DNA of 41,264 nt. It comes from Escherichia phage 216Ecol046PP. Location of the stretch: the sequence record PP328844.1; one strand, 5' to 3'. Below are positions 1 to 41,264 of this stretch, piece by piece; within the stretch, counting starts at the first letter, position 1, and every line of letters begins with the position of its first letter. The notes beneath the pieces were generated by a model, which worked only from the letters and a program-made list of their open reading frames with translations, did no database searches and was not told the origin of the DNA. Position numbers and translations under genes: made by a program.

Positions 1-179
1 TCTCACAGTTCAAGAACCTCAAGTCTCCCCATAGGCCCTCTTTAAGTCCAGACCAAAGGCCCTACCCCAGTCTATCATAAGGTTAGACCGATGGTCAAGA
101 CTTCAGGTCAACGATAGGTCTAGGCTATGGCTTAGGGAAGAACGATAGGTGGTGACTATTGGTCTGTCTTTGAGTCTCT
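1..179 (+). repeat. Terminal repeat copy 1 of 4 (179 bp, begins TCTCACAG as in T7)
   Basis: Read as identical to 501..679, 40586..40764 and 41086..41264 by direct comparison. Confidence 0.9.
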
Positions 180-401
180 GCAGATGACAATAAGGTAGTA
201 AGGTCGCTGAGGGCTTCCACTTCAGCAGGTCGGAAAGGTCCTAAAACCTAACGAGAGTCTGACCAGCTCGCCAAGTCTGCCACTGAGGTGGATAACCAGA
301 GGAGGCAACGTGTCGCCCACTGAGGGGCTACAGCTCACAGTTTAGGTTAACAGGCTAAACAAATGCTTGACAAGATGTAACGATAAGATGTAATATTTAC
401 C
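180..401 (+). repeat. Displaced duplicate of 1180..1401 (early promoter region) joined directly to a terminal repeat copy
   Basis: Read as identical to 1180..1401; junctions at 179/180 and 401/402. Confidence 0.85.
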
Positions 402-500
402 TGGTCTATCCTAGTGTCTCCTGACCTACGGTCCTTGACCTACAGTGGCTGTGGCCTACAGTAGTGACGATGAGTTTTGGACCAAAAGTTTGAGACCACA
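402..500 (+). repeat. Copy of genome right-end unique sequence (matches 40487..40585), forming a concatemer-type junction with the terminal repeat at 501
   Basis: Identity to the sequence immediately preceding the right terminal repeat. Confidence 0.85.
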
Positions 501-679
501 TCTCACAGTTCAAGAACCTCAAGTCTCCCCATAGGCCCTCTTTAAGTCCAGACCAAAGGCCCTACCCCAGTCTATCATAAGGTTAGACCGATGGTCAAGA
601 CTTCAGGTCAACGATAGGTCTAGGCTATGGCTTAGGGAAGAACGATAGGTGGTGACTATTGGTCTGTCTTTGAGTCTCT
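501..679 (+). repeat. Left terminal repeat of the genome unit
   Basis: 179-bp direct repeat; followed by left-end repeat arrays and early promoters as in T7. Confidence 0.9.
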
Positions 680-700
680 ATCTGTATCAGACCTTGAGTC

Positions 701-758
701 ACTACCTACAGTCTAACTACCTACAGTCTAACTACCTACAGTCTAACTACCTACAGTC
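701..758 (+). repeat. Tandem array of a 15-bp unit ACTACCTACAGTCTA (about 3.9 copies)
   Basis: Seen directly; positionally analogous to the short left-end repeat arrays of T7. Confidence 0.85.
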
Positions 759-1040
759 ATCGACCATCGGTAATGCTGCTACCTACAGTCTAAACCTACA
801 GTTAATAGACACAATGGCTATAGACTTAAGGTCTAAGACATGTTAGTCAAAGACTATATCCTCTTACACCATGGGGCCGACGATAGCTTAATCAATATTA
901 TCGACCATCGGTAATGCTGCTACCTACAGTCTAAACCTACAGTTAATAGACACAATGGCTATAGACTTAAGGTCTAAGACATGTTAGTCAAAGACTATAT
1001 CCTCTTACACCATGGGGCCGACGATAGCTTAATCAATATT
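759..1040 (+). repeat. Perfect tandem duplication of a 141-bp unit (759..899 and 900..1040)
   Basis: Two adjacent copies read as identical. Confidence 0.85.
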
Positions 1041-1055
1041 ATTTCAAATTACCTA

Positions 1056-1086
1056 TTGACTATAGGTCCAGACTATGGCCTAATAG
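1056..1086 (+). promoter_or_regulatory. Possible host sigma70 early promoter (TTGACT, then a weak -10)
   Basis: TTGACT at 1056..1061 followed by CTATAGG as in the T7 A1 context; -10 element is weak. Confidence 0.3.
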
Positions 1087-1366
1087 CTTCCGTCAACACG
1101 ACACGGCAACAACCGGATAGTGAAGACGCCGGTGTCATCCCGGTTAAGTAGACAGCCTGATAAGTCATACGAACAACAGGCAGATGACAATAAGGTAGTA
1201 AGGTCGCTGAGGGCTTCCACTTCAGCAGGTCGGAAAGGTCCTAAAACCTAACGAGAGTCTGACCAGCTCGCCAAGTCTGCCACTGAGGTGGATAACCAGA
1301 GGAGGCAACGTGTCGCCCACTGAGGGGCTACAGCTCACAGTTTAGGTTAACAGGCTAAACAAATGC

Positions 1367-1396
1367 TTGACAAGATGTAACGATAAGATGTAATAT
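1367..1396 (+). promoter_or_regulatory. Host sigma70 early promoter (TTGACA, 18-nt spacer, TAATAT)
   Basis: Near-consensus -35 and -10 hexamers upstream of the early genes; a second copy sits in the duplicate at 367..396. Confidence 0.6.
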
Positions 1397-1510
1397 TTAC
1401 CACATCGAAACAACGGTGATGACCAACACTGAAATGGTCTACCTGAAGTCCTCTGACTGAAGGGAATGCTCTTTAACAATCTGGATAAACTCTTAATGTG
1501 CGCCGATAGC

Positions 1511-1566
1511 GACTAACTACAGGGCCTTTTAGTCTACATCTGAAGGCCCTGACTGATAGTCACTAA
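1511..1566 (+). promoter_or_regulatory. RNase III-type hairpin (CAGGGCC...GGCCCTG) upstream of the first early ORF
   Basis: Inverted repeat; preceded by CTCTTTAACAATCTGG..CTCTTAATGTGCGC, which resembles the T7 leader upstream of gene 0.3. Confidence 0.5.
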
Positions 1567-1574
1567 CTTAACGG

Positions 1575-1829
1575 ATGGACACTATGAAACACTTAAGCAC
1601 AATCACTAATCGCAATGAAGTATTCGTGAACACTAAAGGTTATGCGTGGATTCAGCTTAAAGAGATGAGAGGAGCGCGTCACCGTGTGGTAGTGCGCAAG
1701 GTATCAAGCAAGCAGTTCAGCAACTACAGCGTCGATACTATGCGTATAGACAACGAGACTTACCTGATAGACTCGCAGATAACCGTGCGTCCTACAGCGG
1801 GCATCTCAGCTCCTTATTTCGCTAACTGA
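1575..1829 (+). CDS. Hypothetical early protein (84 aa), not present at this position in T7
   Basis: ORF track; lies downstream of early promoters and is bracketed by similar hairpins. Confidence 0.5.
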   Translation: MDTMKHLSTITNRNEVFVNTKGYAWIQLKEMRGARHRVVVRKVSSKQFSNYSVDTMRIDNETYLIDSQITVRPTAGISAPYFAN

Positions 1830-1833
1830 GAGT

Positions 1834-1884
1834 GATTAACTACAGGTCGTTAGAATCATAGCGGCCTGACTGATAGTCACTAAC
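1834..1884 (+). promoter_or_regulatory. Second RNase III-type hairpin sharing CCTGACTGATAGTCACTAAC with the 1511..1566 element
   Basis: 20-bp identical segment plus similar TAACTACAGG arm. Confidence 0.45.
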
Positions 1885-1912
1885 ATATAATTAACTTTGA
1901 GAGGATATAACT

Positions 1913-2416
1913 ATGGAACGTAATGCTAACGCATACTATGAGCTGCTGGCTGCAACCGTTGAGGCATTTATCGAGCGTATTCAGTACGACCACCTGACTC
2001 AAGATGATGACTACAGCGATGCGCTGCATGAGGTCGTAGACGGTCAGGTTCCACACTATTACCACGAGATTTTTACGGTGATGGCTGCTGATGGTATAGA
2101 CCACGAGTTCGAAGACTCTGGGATGATGCCTGAAACCAAGGACGTAACGCGTATACTACAAGCTCGCATCTATGAGGCGCTTTATAACGATGTGTCTAAT
2201 AGCTTGGATGTAGTCTGGTTTGAGGATGAAGAGGCAGACGAAGAGGATGAATATTGGGTAGTTGACGCTAAAACAGGCGCAATAATTGTGCAAGCTGTAG
2301 CTCTTGAGGTCGCTACTGCATGTGCCAAGGTCAACTATGCAATAGGTCGCCACCTGAAGGTGGAAGACATCAATGATAACGTAGTGTTCGATCCTGCGGC
2401 TGAGGACTGCGAGTGA
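1913..2416 (+). CDS. ocr: Ocr-like anti-restriction DNA-mimic protein (gp0.3 homologue) with C-terminal extension, 167 aa
   Basis: N-terminal ~110 aa match T7 Ocr ([34 protein letters not shown], acidic tail); about 55 extra C-terminal residues. Confidence 0.85.
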
Positions 2417-2568
2417 TGGTAACTTATGGTATCTGCCAGCACCACGTCGCCAACGCCCGGCTTATGGTCAAGACCGGGCGGTTAACCCATGATGAGACTA
2501 TGCGTCTCCTGAAGGTGGTCTACAAGCGACGCAAGCGTATTCACGACAGTTTGCACGCTGAGTGATAA
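2416..2568 (+). CDS. Small early ORF (50 aa), hypothetical
   Basis: ATG overlaps the Ocr stop (ATGA); basic protein; below the ORF-track cut-off. Confidence 0.3.
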
Positions 2569-2631
2569 ACGAGAGGTCATCTACTGATAGGTGGCCTCAA
2601 AGATTACCACTTACATTAATAGGGGTTAACT

Positions 2632-2721
2632 ATGAGTGTGGGATATTGGGTATGCCTAGCGCCAGTTATCTGGATGATAGGGTATGGGATATACGACTGT
2701 ATTAAACGGAAATCACTATGA
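2632..2721 (+). CDS. Small hydrophobic peptide ORF (29 aa), hypothetical
   Basis: ATG..TGA overlapping the next ORF start; predicted TM-like peptide. Confidence 0.25.
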   Translation: MSVGYWVCLAPVIWMIGYGIYDCIKRKSL

Positions 2722-2915
2722 GTCTTGCACTATTGATAGCCATAGGCTATGGACTTATCGCATACGTGCTTGTGAGAGACATCAACAAAGCGCGTAAAGT
2801 CTACAAATTCAACTATGTACGTCTGGGCCGCTGGACTGTACGTCAACCTAACGGACGATTCATGCGCAACTTAGCGAACGTCTGGGATATAGCAACTATT
2901 GGGAGCAAACTGTAA
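2718..2915 (+). CDS. Hypothetical early membrane protein (65 aa)
   Basis: ORF track; hydrophobic N-terminus; translationally coupled to neighbours. Confidence 0.4.
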   Translation: MSLALLIAIGYGLIAYVLVRDINKARKVYKFNYVRLGRWTVRQPNGRFMRNLANVWDIATIGSKL

Positions 2916-3175
2916 TGAAAACCGTATACATTAACAAACCATCTAGCCATAGCCGTGTAGAGCAAATAGAGCGTGACATGTTCTTACATCGCCGCATGAG
3001 GGCTGAGGGCCATAAGTACGAACTGATGAGTCTGGCGTTTGGTGGACGACCGATCACTGACGATGGTAAACTTTTAGTCTCAGGCTGGAAGGCGATAGAC
3101 CAACGGTCAACCATCAAGCACACGACTCACGGTGACTTCAGCCATCTCCACGCTAACCCACTGATATGCAAGTGA
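2915..3175 (+). CDS. Hypothetical early protein (86 aa)
   Basis: ORF track; sits where T7 has gene 0.7, but is not a kinase. Confidence 0.45.
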   Translation: MKTVYINKPSSHSRVEQIERDMFLHRRMRAEGHKYELMSLAFGGRPITDDGKLLVSGWKAIDQRSTIKHTTHGDFSHLHANPLICK

Positions 3176-3183
3176 TTATGACT

Positions 3184-3203
3184 TAACTATCACTATAGGA
3201 CTC
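3184..3203 (+). promoter_or_regulatory. Phage RNAP promoter (TTAACTATCACTATAGGA) immediately upstream of the RNAP gene
   Basis: Matches the consensus repeated 11 times in the window. Confidence 0.7.
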
Positions 3204-3272
3204 AAGGTCTAAGACTCCAAGTGAAAGACCAAAGAGACTTTAAGTGAAAGACTAATAACAAGGACTTTAAGT

Positions 3273-5954
3273 ATGAGCGTCATCTCTATTGACAAACACG
3301 ACTTCTCTGATGTGTCGAACGCCATTGAGCCGTTTAACCTGCTGGCTGACCACTACGGGCAAGACCTTGCAGTCAAACAGCTTCAGCTTGAGCATGAGGC
3401 CTACACTGAAGGTGAGCGACGTTTCATCAAGAACCTTGAGCGTCAGACCGAGCGAGGGGAACTGGCAGACAATCAGGTCGCCAAGCCTTTGATGCAGACT
3501 CTGGTTCCTAAGATTGCGCAAGCCGTCAAGGAGTGGCACGAAGGTCCAGACGGGAAGCTGTCAACCTCACGTCCGAGCGTAGCGTTCACCATGTTAAGCA
3601 CTGAAGAGAAGGCCGTCAAGGACCGCTCTCTTCGCATCTCCTGCGAGTCTGCTGCGGTTATCATACTGAAGGTCATCCTCTCCAAGCTGGTCAAGCCTGA
3701 AGGTATACCGATTACACCGATGGCCTCCGCGATAGGTCGCACACTTGAGGATGAAATCCGATTCGGTCGCATTCGTGACAAGGAGAAGGAGCACTTCAAG
3801 AAGGCGATAGCTGATAACCTGAACAAGAGAGCCGGGGCATCATACAAGAAAGCCTACATGCAAGCGGTCGAGACATCCATGCTGGAGCAAGGCCAACTAG
3901 AAGATGCGTGGGGAACTTGGAGTCCGACCGAGGCTGTCCACGTTGGAATCAAGATGCTGGAGATTGTCATACAGTCAACACAACTGGTAGAGCTTAAGCG
4001 TTACGGTGCTGGCAATGCAGCGGCTGACGTTGAGATGGTCCACCTGTCAGACTTCTGGGTCAAGAAGATGGCACAACGCGGCTTTAGCCTTGCGGGTATC
4101 GCCCCAGTCTACCAGCCTTGCGTCGTTCCACCTAAGCCGTGGACCGGTGTCGTAGGCGGTGGGTACTGGGCCAAAGGTCGCAGGCCTCTACCACTGATTC
4201 GCTTAGGGTCTAAGTCTGCGGTGGCACGTTACGAAGACGTGTACATGCCTGAAGTCTATGACGCTGTGAATATCATCCAGAATACACCTTGGAGAGTGAA
4301 CAAGAAGGTTCTGGACGTGGTGAACATGGTCGAGAAGTTGAACAACACGCCTATTGATGACATCCCTCAGATGGAGCCACTGAAGCCTGAAGAATATGCG
4401 GGTGAGACTGAAGAGGAACTCAAGGCGTGGAAGAAAGCGGCTGCTGGTATCTATCGCCGCGAGAAGGCCAGACAGTCACGCAGATTGTCGCTGAGCTTTA
4501 TCGTTAACCAAGCGAACAAGTTCTCTCAGTTCAAGGCCATCTGGTTCCCGTACAACATGGACTGGCGCGGTCGCGTCTACGCTGTGCCGATGTTCAACCC
4601 TCAGGGTAACGACATGCAAAAGGGTCTCCTGACTCTGGCAGTCGGTAAGCCTATTGGTGCTGATGGTTTCAAATGGCTGAAGGTCCACGGTGCAAACTGT
4701 GCGGGTGTCGATAAAGTCACCTTCGAGGAGCGCATCAAGTGGGTGGAAGACAACCACGACAACATCATGGCTGCTGCTAAGGCACCGATGGATAGCATTG
4801 AGTGGTGGGGCAAGTTAGACTCTCCTTTCTGCTTCCTTGCGTTCTGCTTCGAGTATGCTGGCGTGATGCACCACGGATTGTCTTACTCCTGCTCGCTGCC
4901 GATAGCTTTCGATGGGTCCTGCTCTGGGATTCAGCACTTCAGCGCTATGCTTCGTGACCACATCGGTGGACATGCAGTAAACCTGACGCCTTCCGGTAAG
5001 GTCCAAGACATCTACCGCATCGTGTCTGACCGCATTGAGGAAGAGCTTAAAGTCCTGCTGGTTAACGGCACTGACAACGAGATGGTAACTCACGAGGACA
5101 AGAAAACTGGTGAGATTACCGAGCGTCTCAAGCTGGGGACACGAGAGCTGGCCCGTCAGTGGCTGACCTACGGTATGTCACGAAAGGTCACTAAGCGCTC
5201 AGTCATGACTCTGGCCTACGGGTCGAAAGAGTACGGATTCGCAGACCAAGTATACGAGGACATCGTGATGCCAGCGATTGACTCAGGGTCTGGCGCTATG
5301 TTCACTGAACCAAGCCAAGCATCTCGCTTCATGGCTAAGATGATTTGGGAAGCTGTGAGTGTGACCGTAGTTGCTGCGGTTGACGCGATGAAATGGCTTC
5401 AGGGTGCTGCCAAGCTGCTGGCGGCTGAAGTGAAGGACAAGAAGACGGGTGAAATCCTGAAGCCTTGCCTTCCGGTACACTGGGTCACACCTGATGGGTT
5501 CCCGGTCTGGCAGGAATACCGCAAGAAGGATACAACTCGTCTGAATCTGATGTTCTTAGGGTCATTCAACCTTCAGCCTACCGTCAACAAAGGCACGAAG
5601 AAAGAGCTGGATAAGCACAAGCAGGAGTCAGGCATTAGCCCGAACTTCGTCCACTCACAAGATGGTAGCCACCTCCGCAAGACTGTAGTCCATACTCACC
5701 GCAAGTATGGCGTGATGTCGTTCGCAGTGATTCACGATAGCTTCGGGACCATCCCGGCTGACGCTGAGTATCTGTTCCGTGGGGTCCGTGAGACTATGGT
5801 AGAGACCTACCGCGACAACGATGTGCTGCTTGACTTCTACGAGCAGTTTGAATACCAGCTTCACGAGAGCCAGCGCAATAAGTTGCCAGAGCTTCCGAAG
5901 AAAGGTAAACTGAATATCGAAGACATCTTGTCTTCAGACTTTGCATTCGCTTAA
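3273..5954 (+). CDS. 1: Single-subunit DNA-dependent RNA polymerase (T7 gene 1 homologue), 893 aa
   Basis: Collinear similarity to T7/T3 RNAP throughout (e.g. WFPYNMDWRGRVYAV, HDSFGT, C-terminal FAFA). Confidence 0.97.
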   Translation: MSVISIDKHDFSDVSNAIEPFNLLADHYGQDLAVKQLQLEHEAYTEGERRFIKNLERQTERGELADNQVAKPLMQTLVPKIAQAVKEWHEGPDGKLSTSRPSVAFTMLSTEEKAVKDRSLRISCESAAVIILKVILSKLVKPEGIPITPMASAIGRTLEDEIRFGRIRDKEKEHFKKAIADNLNKRAGASYKKAYMQAVETSMLEQGQLEDAWGTWSPTEAVHVGIKMLEIVIQSTQLVELKRYGAGNAAADVEMVHLSDFWVKKMAQRGFSLAGIAPVYQPCVVPPKPWTGVVGGGYWAKGRRPLPLIRLGSKSAVARYEDVYMPEVYDAVNIIQNTPWRVNKKVLDVVNMVEKLNNTPIDDIPQMEPLKPEEYAGETEEELKAWKKAAAGIYRREKARQSRRLSLSFIVNQANKFSQFKAIWFPYNMDWRGRVYAVPMFNPQGNDMQKGLLTLAVGKPIGADGFKWLKVHGANCAGVDKVTFEERIKWVEDNHDNIMAAAKAPMDSIEWWGKLDSPFCFLAFCFEYAGVMHHGLSYSCSLPIAFDGSCSGIQHFSAMLRDHIGGHAVNLTPSGKVQDIYRIVSDRIEEELKVLLVNGTDNEMVTHEDKKTGEITERLKLGTRELARQWLTYGMSRKVTKRSVMTLAYGSKEYGFADQVYEDIVMPAIDSGSGAMFTEPSQASRFMAKMIWEAVSVTVVAAVDAMKWLQGAAKLLAAEVKDKKTGEILKPCLPVHWVTPDGFPVWQEYRKKDTTRLNLMFLGSFNLQPTVNKGTKKELDKHKQESGISPNFVHSQDGSHLRKTVVHTHRKYGVMSFAVIHDSFGTIPADAEYLFRGVRETMVETYRDNDVLLDFYEQFEYQLHESQRNKLPELPKKGKLNIEDILSSDFAFA

Positions 5955-6260: not shown

Positions 6261-6280
6261 TAAACTATCACTATAGGATT
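6261..6280 (+). promoter_or_regulatory. Phage RNAP promoter (phi1.1-like)
   Basis: TAAACTATCACTATAGGA consensus. Confidence 0.8.
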
Positions 6281-6281
6281 A

Positions 6282-6324
6282 GACTAAAGGTCATGACTCA
6301 AAGTCGTGGCCTTCATGATTAACC
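6282..6324 (+). promoter_or_regulatory. RNase III-type hairpin (R1.1-like)
   Basis: GACTAAAGGTCAT...GTGGCCTTCATGATTAACC; member of a three-copy family. Confidence 0.5.
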
Positions 6325-6354
6325 CTAAATAAACACTACTGGAGATTTAACCGT

Positions 6355-13819: not shown

Positions 13820-13983
13820 TGTTAAAGAAACTTAAAGCTCGATACCATCAGTTCATGTACAAATGGTGGAGCGATGAAGCAACCTGCCTGTCGAACATTC
13901 TGGGAGACCAGCGGTTCAACTCTGAGGCATGGAAGAAAGCTAACCGGAAGTTCATGTATCACTTCTTGCGTACAGACTTCTAG
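13819..13983 (+). CDS. Hypothetical small protein (54 aa, GTG start), gene 4.3/4.5 position
   Basis: RBS GGAGG 8 nt upstream of GTG; uninterrupted frame. Confidence 0.35.
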
Positions 13984-13988
13984 GTCTA

Positions 13989-14030
13989 GACTCAAGGTCA
14001 TTCATAGCGAGTGGCCTTTATGATTAGACT
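13989..14030 (+). promoter_or_regulatory. RNase III-type hairpin (R4.7-like)
   Basis: GACTCAAGGTCAT...GTGGCCTTTATGATTAGAC. Confidence 0.5.
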
Positions 14031-14047
14031 AAAGCGGAGGATTAACC

Positions 14048-37247: not shown

Positions 37248-37507
37248 CGCAGATGGACTTAGAGAAGTTCCTCTTGATGCTAGATACTGAACGTGCTCGA
37301 CTCATGCTGCAAGACCTGCGGGATGACACTAAGCGTTCACCTCAGCTTTACAACGCCATTGAGAAGCTACTGGCTCGTCACAACTTCGTGCTAAGCAAGG
37401 TGTCTGTCGACGAGAAGACTCTGGCTGATATGGAGGCCCTGAACGCAGAGTACGATAAGGTGCTCTCGGCTACGGAAGATAATGACACCGGGTATGGTGT
37501 TCAATAA
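37244..37507 (+). CDS. 18: Terminase small subunit (gp18 homologue)
   Basis: F..MLDT.....L.DL.D..RSPQLYNAIEKLL.RH.F matches T7 gp18. Confidence 0.88.
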   Translation: MTQMDLEKFLLMLDTERARLMLQDLRDDTKRSPQLYNAIEKLLARHNFVLSKVSVDEKTLADMEALNAEYDKVLSATEDNDTGYGVQ

Positions 37508-37513
37508 GTGTTA

Positions 37514-37556
37514 GACTCAAGGTCATTACTATATGTAGTGGCCTTTATGGTTAACA
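37514..37556 (+). promoter_or_regulatory. RNase III-type hairpin (R18.5-like)
   Basis: GACTCAAGGTCAT...GTGGCCTTTATGGTTAAC; third member of the hairpin family. Confidence 0.5.
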
Positions 37557-37608
37557 CTAACTAGTGGAGGAGACTCTACGTGAAATCTGATAAACCGGGA
37601 GGGCAACT

Positions 37609-40423: not shown

Positions 40424-40585
40424 TACTGTAGTCAAGGACTTTAGGTAACACCTTAAGAGAAGCTCACTTAGGGTCATCCTACTTATTGGTCTATCCTAGT
40501 GTCTCCTGACCTACGGTCCTTGACCTACAGTGGCTGTGGCCTACAGTAGTGACGATGAGTTTTGGACCAAAAGTTTGAGACCACA

Positions 40586-40764
40586 TCTCACAGTTCAAGA
40601 ACCTCAAGTCTCCCCATAGGCCCTCTTTAAGTCCAGACCAAAGGCCCTACCCCAGTCTATCATAAGGTTAGACCGATGGTCAAGACTTCAGGTCAACGAT
40701 AGGTCTAGGCTATGGCTTAGGGAAGAACGATAGGTGGTGACTATTGGTCTGTCTTTGAGTCTCT
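40586..40764 (+). repeat. Right terminal repeat of the genome unit
   Basis: Identical to 501..679. Confidence 0.9.
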
Positions 40765-41085
40765 ATCTGTATCAGACCTTGAGTCACTACCTACAGTCTA
40801 ACTACCTACAGTCTAACTACCTACAGTCTAACTACCTACAGTCATCGACCATCGGTAATGCTGCTACCTACAGTCTAAACCTACAGTTAATAGACACAAT
40901 GGCTATAGACTTAAGGTCTAAGACATGTTAGTCAAAGACTATATCCTCTTACACCATGGGGCCGACGATAGCTTAATCAATATTATCGACCATCGGTAAT
41001 GCTGCTACCTACAGTCTAAACCTACAGTTAATAGACACAATGGCTATAGACTTAAGGTCTAAGACATGTTAGTCAAAGACTATAT
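40765..41085 (+). repeat. Copy of left-end unique sequence 680..1000 following the right terminal repeat (concatemer-type continuation)
   Basis: Identity to 680..1000 including the 15-bp array and part of the 141-bp duplication. Confidence 0.85.
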
Positions 41086-41264
41086 TCTCACAGTTCAAGA
41101 ACCTCAAGTCTCCCCATAGGCCCTCTTTAAGTCCAGACCAAAGGCCCTACCCCAGTCTATCATAAGGTTAGACCGATGGTCAAGACTTCAGGTCAACGAT
41201 AGGTCTAGGCTATGGCTTAGGGAAGAACGATAGGTGGTGACTATTGGTCTGTCTTTGAGTCTCT
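41086..41264 (+). repeat. Fourth terminal repeat copy, joined to an internal point of the left-end region
   Basis: Identical to the terminal repeat; junction at 41085/41086 breaks collinearity with 1001 onward. Confidence 0.85.

Follow-up and report, generated by a model that had tools for sequence, protein, structure and literature searches.

Early processing of phage T7 transcripts by RNase III reportedly takes place at the sites R0.3, R0.5 and R1 described by Dunn and Studier in 1983, and hairpin-delimited early cistrons are the norm in the T7 group. The closest published analogy to a gene set between repeated hairpins comes from T4-type phages, in which composite stem-loops (PeSL), each uniting an early promoter with a terminator, flank small early open reading frames (ORFs) of unknown function in hyperplastic regions (PMC2839356, PMC4122927). 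Both systems bear on a locus in Escherichia phage 216Ecol046PP (sequence record PP328844.1, analysed over its full 41,264 nucleotides and called the window here), where a small gene, gene 0.2 (1575..1829, + strand), lies between two similar hairpins ahead of an Ocr-like anti-restriction gene. By its matches to sequence records, the window is the genome of a K1F-like phage (genus Kayfunavirus, T7 group). Positions 1440-1940 showed 98.6 % identity with Escherichia phage UFJF_EcSW4 and 96 % with K1F, and 268 phage records matched at least part of this region.

Gene 0.2 is conserved, selected, foldable, accessory and horizontally spread among the early regions of virulent podophages. On balance, we regard it as probable that this class I (early) gene lies outside the core set and forms a discrete cassette, in a variable slot with the last early promoter of host type on one side and Ocr on the other, and that its product, gp0.2, is a host-directed effector. 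An earlier note on this DNA had singled the element out as unusual, which it is not: over 100 public genomes already contain the gene and its hairpins, and their annotation goes back to the K1F sequence. The product is K1F gp0.2 (CAJ29341, AM084414), with 93 % amino acid identity, the same position and the same flanking hairpins; it is annotated in AM084414 but not in the other K1F record, DQ111067. It matched the PHROG 10124 profile, annotated as of unknown function, over residues 4-84 (E = 1.7e-38), and tblastn found homologues in 118 phage records, dozens of them with 93-99 % identity. Compared with K1F gp0.2 and PHROG 10124, the gene is the same, with no difference of substance. At present it is a hypothetical gene, already catalogued, whose arrangement is typical for the early region of T7-group phages; its value lies in being a well-defined candidate for anti-defence screening within a documented cassette slot.

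Hairpins flanking gene 0.2

The early-transcript leader CTCTTTAACAATCTGG (1469..1484, + strand) is identical to T7 814-829 and invariant across T7, K1F, Vec13, PM129 and the window. Leader and first hairpin were collinear with T7 740-903 in the alignment, the stretch from CTCTTTAACAATCTGG through this hairpin (hairpin A) corresponding to T7 814-903. In T7 the first hairpin is followed directly by gene 0.3, with nothing between. Gene 0.2 is thus, as had been proposed, an extra early gene relative to T7, set between the A3 leader with its R0.3-type hairpin and an Ocr gene recognized by Pfam PF08684. Alignment with T7 and K1F-like genomes gave the same picture, collinear as far as hairpin A and variable in the gene 0.2 slot.

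Ahead of the leader, a sigma-70 promoter-like site (TTGACA-18-TAATAT; 1367..1396, + strand) has 10/12 consensus matches and, in the alignment, falls a short way upstream of the leader of the T7 A3 transcript. It is the counterpart of the T7 early promoter A3, judged by sequence and position, and probably drives the early operon that includes gene 0.2. Besides this site, a promoter scan found no strong promoter-like site upstream of gene 0.2, and there was no terminator-like site in window positions 1-3400.

Hairpin A (1505..1567, + strand) is the homologue of T7 R0.3 by position and sequence, and hairpin B (1828..1884, + strand) has a 5' flank that overlaps the stop codon of gene 0.2. The 20-mer CCTGACTGATAGTCACTAAC forms part of both, at 1548-1567 and 1865-1884; it occurs exactly twice in the window (0 expected from 100 shuffles), and no further copy was found there even with 3 mismatches allowed. 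A direct-repeat scan gave 79 % identity between the 5' arms (1505-1528 and 1828-1851). The two hairpins share an irregular fold composed of a lower stem, an asymmetric internal loop and an upper stem, with folding energies of -26.2 kcal/mol for A and -23.9 kcal/mol for B (z = -3.6 and -4.4, respectively; 0 of 200 shuffles as good). T7 850-903 (R0.3) folds with the same dot-bracket architecture, and z ranged from -3.2 to -4.4 across the window and T7 R0.3 hairpins. A third member of the family (2558..2614, + strand; fold z = -3.8) is the counterpart of T7 R0.5 and closes the transcript segment of Ocr and a 50-amino-acid gene. The duplicated RNase III-type hairpins of the earlier note, with their identical 20-mer, were thus borne out by exact repeat, common fold and homology to T7 R0.3 and R0.5.

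Fifteen hairpins from the window and its relatives were aligned together with T7 R0.3 and R0.5. All fell into one register with 18 consensus pairs, eight of which showed compensatory changes. A covariance model (model R1) was built on this alignment, which included T7 R0.3 and R0.5; the T7 R1 site was not in the training set. On T7, the model recovered R0.3 and R0.5 as well as an untrained site at 3099-3151 that corresponds to R1. On the window, it found six strong sites, all on the + strand and distributed over early and middle/late operons: hairpin B scored best (78.8 bits, E = 2e-17), followed by hairpin A (74.0 bits, E = 3e-16), and the other four were 2558-2614 (57 bits, E = 5e-12), 6272-6329, 13979-14033 and 37504-37561. 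The positions of the last three are reminiscent of T7 R1.1/R1.3, R4.7 and R18.5. An Rfam scan of positions 1-3400 at E ≤ 1 matched no family, and the T7 RNase III sites are apparently absent from Rfam.

The window and T7 sets are alike in their position after the A3 leader between early cistrons, in strand, in the irregular hairpin with an asymmetric loop, in the conserved boxes AG(C/T)G..AAC..AGG and CCT..TGAT..CACT, and in being detected by a single covariance model. They differ in that the gene 0.2 hairpins, with their identical 20-nt 3' arms, are far more similar to each other than is any pair of T7 sites, and in that some relatives carry a branched apical insertion, which gives ~85 nt instead of ~57. 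The gene 0.2 hairpins are homologous to T7 RNase III sites in both sequence and structure. RNase III cuts would be predicted near 1554/1555 in hairpin A, on the 3' side of the internal loop, and near 1871/1872 in hairpin B, because these positions align with the T7 R0.3 cut, which we take to be nt 890 as given by Dunn and Studier in 1983.

The cassette slot ahead of Ocr

Relatives that lack gene 0.2 show where the cassette begins and ends. In four of them (L011, L060, L075 and L078), hairpin A is joined directly to the Ocr leader, and the junction, CACTAAC-ACATACTTAACTTTGAGAGGATATAA.TATGGAACG, equals the sequence 3' of hairpin B in K1F and the window. The Ocr leader and ribosome-binding region of the window (..AACTTTGAGAGGATATAACT-ATG; 1885..1912, + strand), which follows hairpin B, thus lies directly 3' of hairpin A in cassette-less relatives. 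This agrees with the suggestion that the early leader and the Ocr context are two halves of a T7-like upstream sequence. The unit added to the cassette-less layout is 317 bp by the start-to-start spacing of the repeats, shorter than the ~370-bp segment first estimated.

Other relatives fill the slot differently. The order hairpin-0.2-hairpin-Ocr was found in the window, K1F, L057 and L059; TM1 carries hairpin-ORF92-hairpin-Ocr, Vec13 has hairpin-ORF92-hairpin-0.2-hairpin-Ocr, and in PM129 the two genes are reversed (hairpin-0.2-hairpin-ORF92-hairpin-Ocr). In every cassette, the ORF has a ribosome-binding stretch of its own immediately 3' of the 3' arm common to the hairpins and ends in a stop codon that touches or overlaps the common 5' arm, which places the breakpoints in the hairpins. 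ORF92 (PHROG 9817; L001 930-1208) was found in 62 phage records, in each case 1-2 kb from the left end; among them are Klebsiella phages and T3-like phages of Yersinia and Serratia, with 46-59 % identity.

A wider sample was drawn from IMG/VR, where a 15-mer scan gave mostly chance matches, with 17 loci T7-like. Among 41 Ocr-encoding loci, 20 had one hairpin directly before Ocr and 11 had one or two hairpin-bracketed cassettes; the remaining 10, more distant, gave no covariance-model match. At least five ORF families occupied the slot: gp0.2, ORF92, a 58/59-amino-acid family, a 43-amino-acid family and S-adenosylmethionine (SAM) hydrolase. This is a hairpin-delimited accessory-gene slot, in which presence, absence and reordering are bounded by the hairpins, and gene 0.2 is accessory, with a patchy distribution even among near-identical Kayfunaviruses. 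Universal presence in the T7 group in a housekeeping role does not describe the gene, as T7, T3 and many Kayfunaviruses are without it.

One relative extends this pattern. PM129 (L002) carries a fourth copy of the hairpin-A type (3063-3125, 71 bits), downstream of Ocr and a 0.35-like gene and before a 75-amino-acid ORF (PHROG 32657); cassettes outside the Ocr slot are therefore bounded by this type of hairpin too. A 38.5-kb T3-like contig from IMG/VR (L129 870-2188) combines a hairpin-bracketed SAM hydrolase of T3 type (870-1325) with an Ocr-like gene (1673-2188).

By analogy with T7, host RNA polymerase would transcribe gene 0.2 from the A3-like promoter at 1367-1396 once the left genome end enters the cell, and host RNase III would cut the polycistronic RNA in the internal loops of both hairpins, near 1554 and 1871. 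Cutting there would set free a gene 0.2 mRNA of ~317 nt that, like the early mRNAs of T7, has a stable stem at its 3' end, here the upper stem of hairpin B. The near-perfectly shared arms may double as homology patches for recombination, which could add, remove and reorder cassettes with the expression signals of the neighbouring genes left undisturbed. Such recombination within hairpins would yield the five arrangements observed: no cassette, one gene alone (0.2 or ORF92), and the two together in either order. The same logic could be of practical use, in that genes could be exchanged at the RNase III hairpins in K1F-like phages used for therapy, with neighbouring signals left undisturbed.

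The resemblance to PeSL lies in the fact that insertions, deletions and reorderings between close relatives break within the repeated motif. The systems differ in the motif, which is here an RNA-processing hairpin without -35/-10 hexamers or a T-run, and in the phages concerned, a T7-group podovirus as opposed to the myoviruses that carry PeSL. The earlier note had called the element a moron-type insertion. It is an accessory insert and, like lambdoid morons, an extra, dispensable gene present in some relatives between genes that are adjacent elsewhere. In the strict sense the term does not apply, since the cassette has no promoter or terminator of its own and belongs to the early operon of a virulent phage, whereas a classical moron is expressed from a prophage.

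The gp0.2 protein and its possible targets

The ORF at 1575..1829 encodes 84 amino acids from its first ATG and 81 from a second ATG at 1584. The basic ORF first reported was therefore present, with a start that is probably misplaced: the PHROG profile and two database annotations begin at 1584, which favours the 81-amino-acid form. This form has an isoelectric point (pI) of 10.1 and a net charge of about +6, and the mass of gp0.2 is 9.4 kDa. The ratio of non-synonymous to synonymous substitution rates (dN/dS) was 0.14-0.41 within Kayfunavirus and 0.10 against a Klebsiella phage copy at dS ~2.5. This indicates that gp0.2 is under purifying selection.

These values bear on whether the ORF is merely non-functional filler and the duplicated hairpin is what matters, for example as an extra processing or stabilizing element for the Ocr mRNA. 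A weak Shine-Dalgarno sequence before either ATG and the lack of a detectable domain would fit such a reading, which nevertheless appears extremely improbable given the purifying selection (dN/dS of 0.10 against the Klebsiella phage copy), recognizable homologues in at least five phage lineages, most of them without hairpins, the PHROG match (E = 2e-38, rounded) and a confident fold prediction once distant homologues were included. A non-coding interpretation is effectively refuted by the conservation data.

Searches of large protein databases added only close relatives and 16 distant homologues (31-45 % identity), all with the motif RK[VI]xSxxFSN[YW]SVDTVRIxxxxYL[IV]DS; the distant members P0041-P0056 also matched the PHROG 10124 profile. 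AlphaFold (AF2) gave a predicted local distance difference test score (pLDDT) of 67 with close homologues only. With the distant homologues added, pLDDT rose to 88.9, with a predicted template modelling score (pTM) of 0.75, for six antiparallel strands in a predicted beta-meander. The C-terminal tail, which carries a conserved APYF(A)N, was of low confidence in the model and may be flexible.

No similarity to a characterized protein emerged from Pfam, PDB profile or structure searches. Neither gp0.2 nor ORF92 matched Pfam, the family profile matched no PDB sequence at E < 0.8, the predicted fold had no PDB neighbour, and Foldseek against BFVD returned uncharacterized podophage proteins only. 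The hidden Markov model and structure-prediction searches that the earlier note had called for thus led to PHROG 10124 alone, a confident six-strand model and no characterized relative. Two candidates were rejected. A lead to a bacterial SH3 (SH3_5) domain, from a search of 1.84 billion proteins, was a short match amplified by repeats, with no profile-level similarity over the domain. N4 gp8, a clamp-loader inhibitor, and other N4 early ORFs are unrelated to the gp0.2 family, which N4 lacks.

Homologues were also found beyond the Kayfunaviruses of Escherichia. Copies in a Klebsiella Przondovirus, upstream of Ocr, and in a Cronobacter Kayfunavirus are likewise hairpin-bracketed. N4-like Gamaleyaviruses carry the gene in the early region, 2-3 kb from the left end and beside a homologue of N4 gp9; in the Tuodvirus phD2B it ranks third from the left end, with a SAM hydrolase two genes away; and the Ermolevavirus phiKT has a homologue as well. 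Further members were found in a 150-kb phage and in a 141-kb contig, within a long array of small ORFs. In a T7-like contig with a 0.7 kinase, a 189-amino-acid fused form lies directly 3' of an R0.3-type hairpin, at the position of gene 0.3 (Ocr). Plasmids yielded no homologue by tblastn, and there is therefore no link to plasmid leading-region anti-defence islands.

Outside Studiervirinae, the covariance model detected no R1-type hairpins near gp0.2-family genes, and the protein is therefore independent of the hairpins. This matters for the idea that gp0.2 is a nucleic-acid-binding regulator of the phage's own early RNA or entering DNA, one that modulates processing or stability at the flanking hairpins, for instance, or protects the first-entered DNA end. 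Such a role seems improbable: hairpins of this kind are missing from the surroundings of the homologues in N4-like phages, phD2B and phiKT, unrelated ORFs fill the same hairpin-bracketed slot, and matches to a dsRBD vanished with the confident model.

A host-directed early effector remains the favoured reading. In mechanistic terms, gp0.2 would most likely act by binding and neutralizing some component of the host as soon as infection begins; a defence system would be the most probable target and a housekeeping component the main alternative. Position, patchy distribution and horizontal spread are what suggest counter-defence. Like Ocr and the T3 SAM hydrolase, gp0.2 is encoded in the segment that would enter first and be transcribed by host polymerase, is non-core and is exchanged between phages, and the fused family member occupies the Ocr position in one T7-like contig. 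It differs from Ocr in being basic (pI 10) and predicted to be all-beta; Ocr, a helical DNA mimic, is acidic (pI 4), and the two have no sequence or fold similarity. The gene thus resembles anti-defence genes in being small, non-core, patchy and horizontally exchanged, in lying near known ones (Ocr here and in Przondovirus, SAM hydrolase in phD2B) and in its presumed early expression; homology to a protein with defence-inhibiting activity was not found in the sequence and structure searches.

Small early proteins of T7 also include inhibitors of host functions, such as gp0.4, which acts on FtsZ, and gp2 and gp5.7, which act on RNA polymerase. A comparable takeover role for gp0.2, as an inhibitor of transcription, replication, division or nucleoid function, is less likely, though it deserves serious consideration. 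The early position and small size match those of T7 class I and II host inhibitors, a pI of 10.1 would suit binding to nucleic acid or to an acidic protein of the host, and the family occurs in several lineages of virulent podophages with rapid host shut-down. That an early host inhibitor can be non-essential is illustrated by gp0.4 of T7 (PMC9372555). However, gp0.2 has no similarity to gp0.4, gp2, gp5.7 or N4 gp8. Gene 0.2 is present in some Kayfunaviruses and absent from others that are nearly identical, a patchiness that fits strain-specific counter-defence better than a general takeover function, and counter-defence is for this reason considered the likelier of the two.

Several points weigh against an effector encoded by a mobile early cassette. 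Homology to T7 is the basis on which cleavage by RNase III, translation and transcription from the A3-like promoter are attributed to the locus, and hairpin recombination is deduced from breakpoints. Proximity to Ocr or SAM hydrolase is weak evidence, because early genes fill the entire left end and, in T7, include takeover functions (gp0.4, gp0.7). Literature searches turned up no paper on the K1F protein, gp0.2 is not mentioned in the BASEL and K1F/FtsZ papers, and its peptide strings were absent from those supplements of a 200-gene phage accessory-gene screen that are in text form (bioRxiv 10.1101/2023.04.06.535777).

A bolder version of the counter-defence hypothesis can be offered tentatively. 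PHROG 10124 might found a new anti-defence family with a previously unseen small beta-meander fold, shared by several podophage lineages, and the hairpins might constitute an integrase-free cassette system. It is conceivable, if rather doubtful, that the K1F-like, KP32-like, G7C/N4-like, phD2B and phiKT lineages use the protein within the first seconds of an infection to counter a defence widespread among capsulated E. coli and Klebsiella. Equally speculative is the notion that the near-identical RNase III hairpins of Studiervirinae are an analogue of PeSL, by which effectors would be shuffled, each with its own processed and stabilized mRNA. If gp0.2 turns out to serve counter-defence or takeover, the few characterized T7-group early functions would gain a new protein family and fold, and the slot before Ocr, occupied by at least five unrelated ORF families, would be a place to mine further effectors.

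Neighbouring genes and genome ends

The Ocr-like gene downstream of the cassette (1913..2416, + strand) encodes 167 amino acids and matched Pfam PF08684 (E = 1e-29) and PHROG 2568 (E = 2e-53). The Ocr domain spans residues 8-94 and is followed by a C-terminal extension of ~50 amino acids that is absent from T7 Ocr (117 amino acids) and from the 110-114-amino-acid forms of Vec13, L078 and L057; relatives alternate between long and short forms. In some Kayfunaviruses (L090 2016-2540 and L058), Ocr is replaced by a 174-amino-acid protein of PHROG 11084 (function unknown), preceded in L090 by a 62-amino-acid PHROG 336 gene. Just past the third hairpin of the window, a hydrophobic ORF of 29 amino acids (MSVGYWVCLAPVIWMIGYGIYDCIKRKSL; 2632-2721) overlaps the start of the next gene by ATGA. 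It is probably a gene for a small membrane peptide, below the cutoff of the ORF list.

The ends of the window (1-1401 and 40487-41264) resemble a concatemer or an assembly artefact. A 179-bp terminal repeat is present in four copies (1-179, 501-679, 40586-40764 and 41086-41264), and positions 402-1000 equal 40487-41085. Positions 180-401 duplicate 1180-1401, including the A3-like promoter, of which a second, identical copy lies at 367-396 in this duplicated left end. The left end also contains a 142-bp tandem duplication (759-901 / 900-1042) and a short array of 15-bp tandem repeats at ~701-758.
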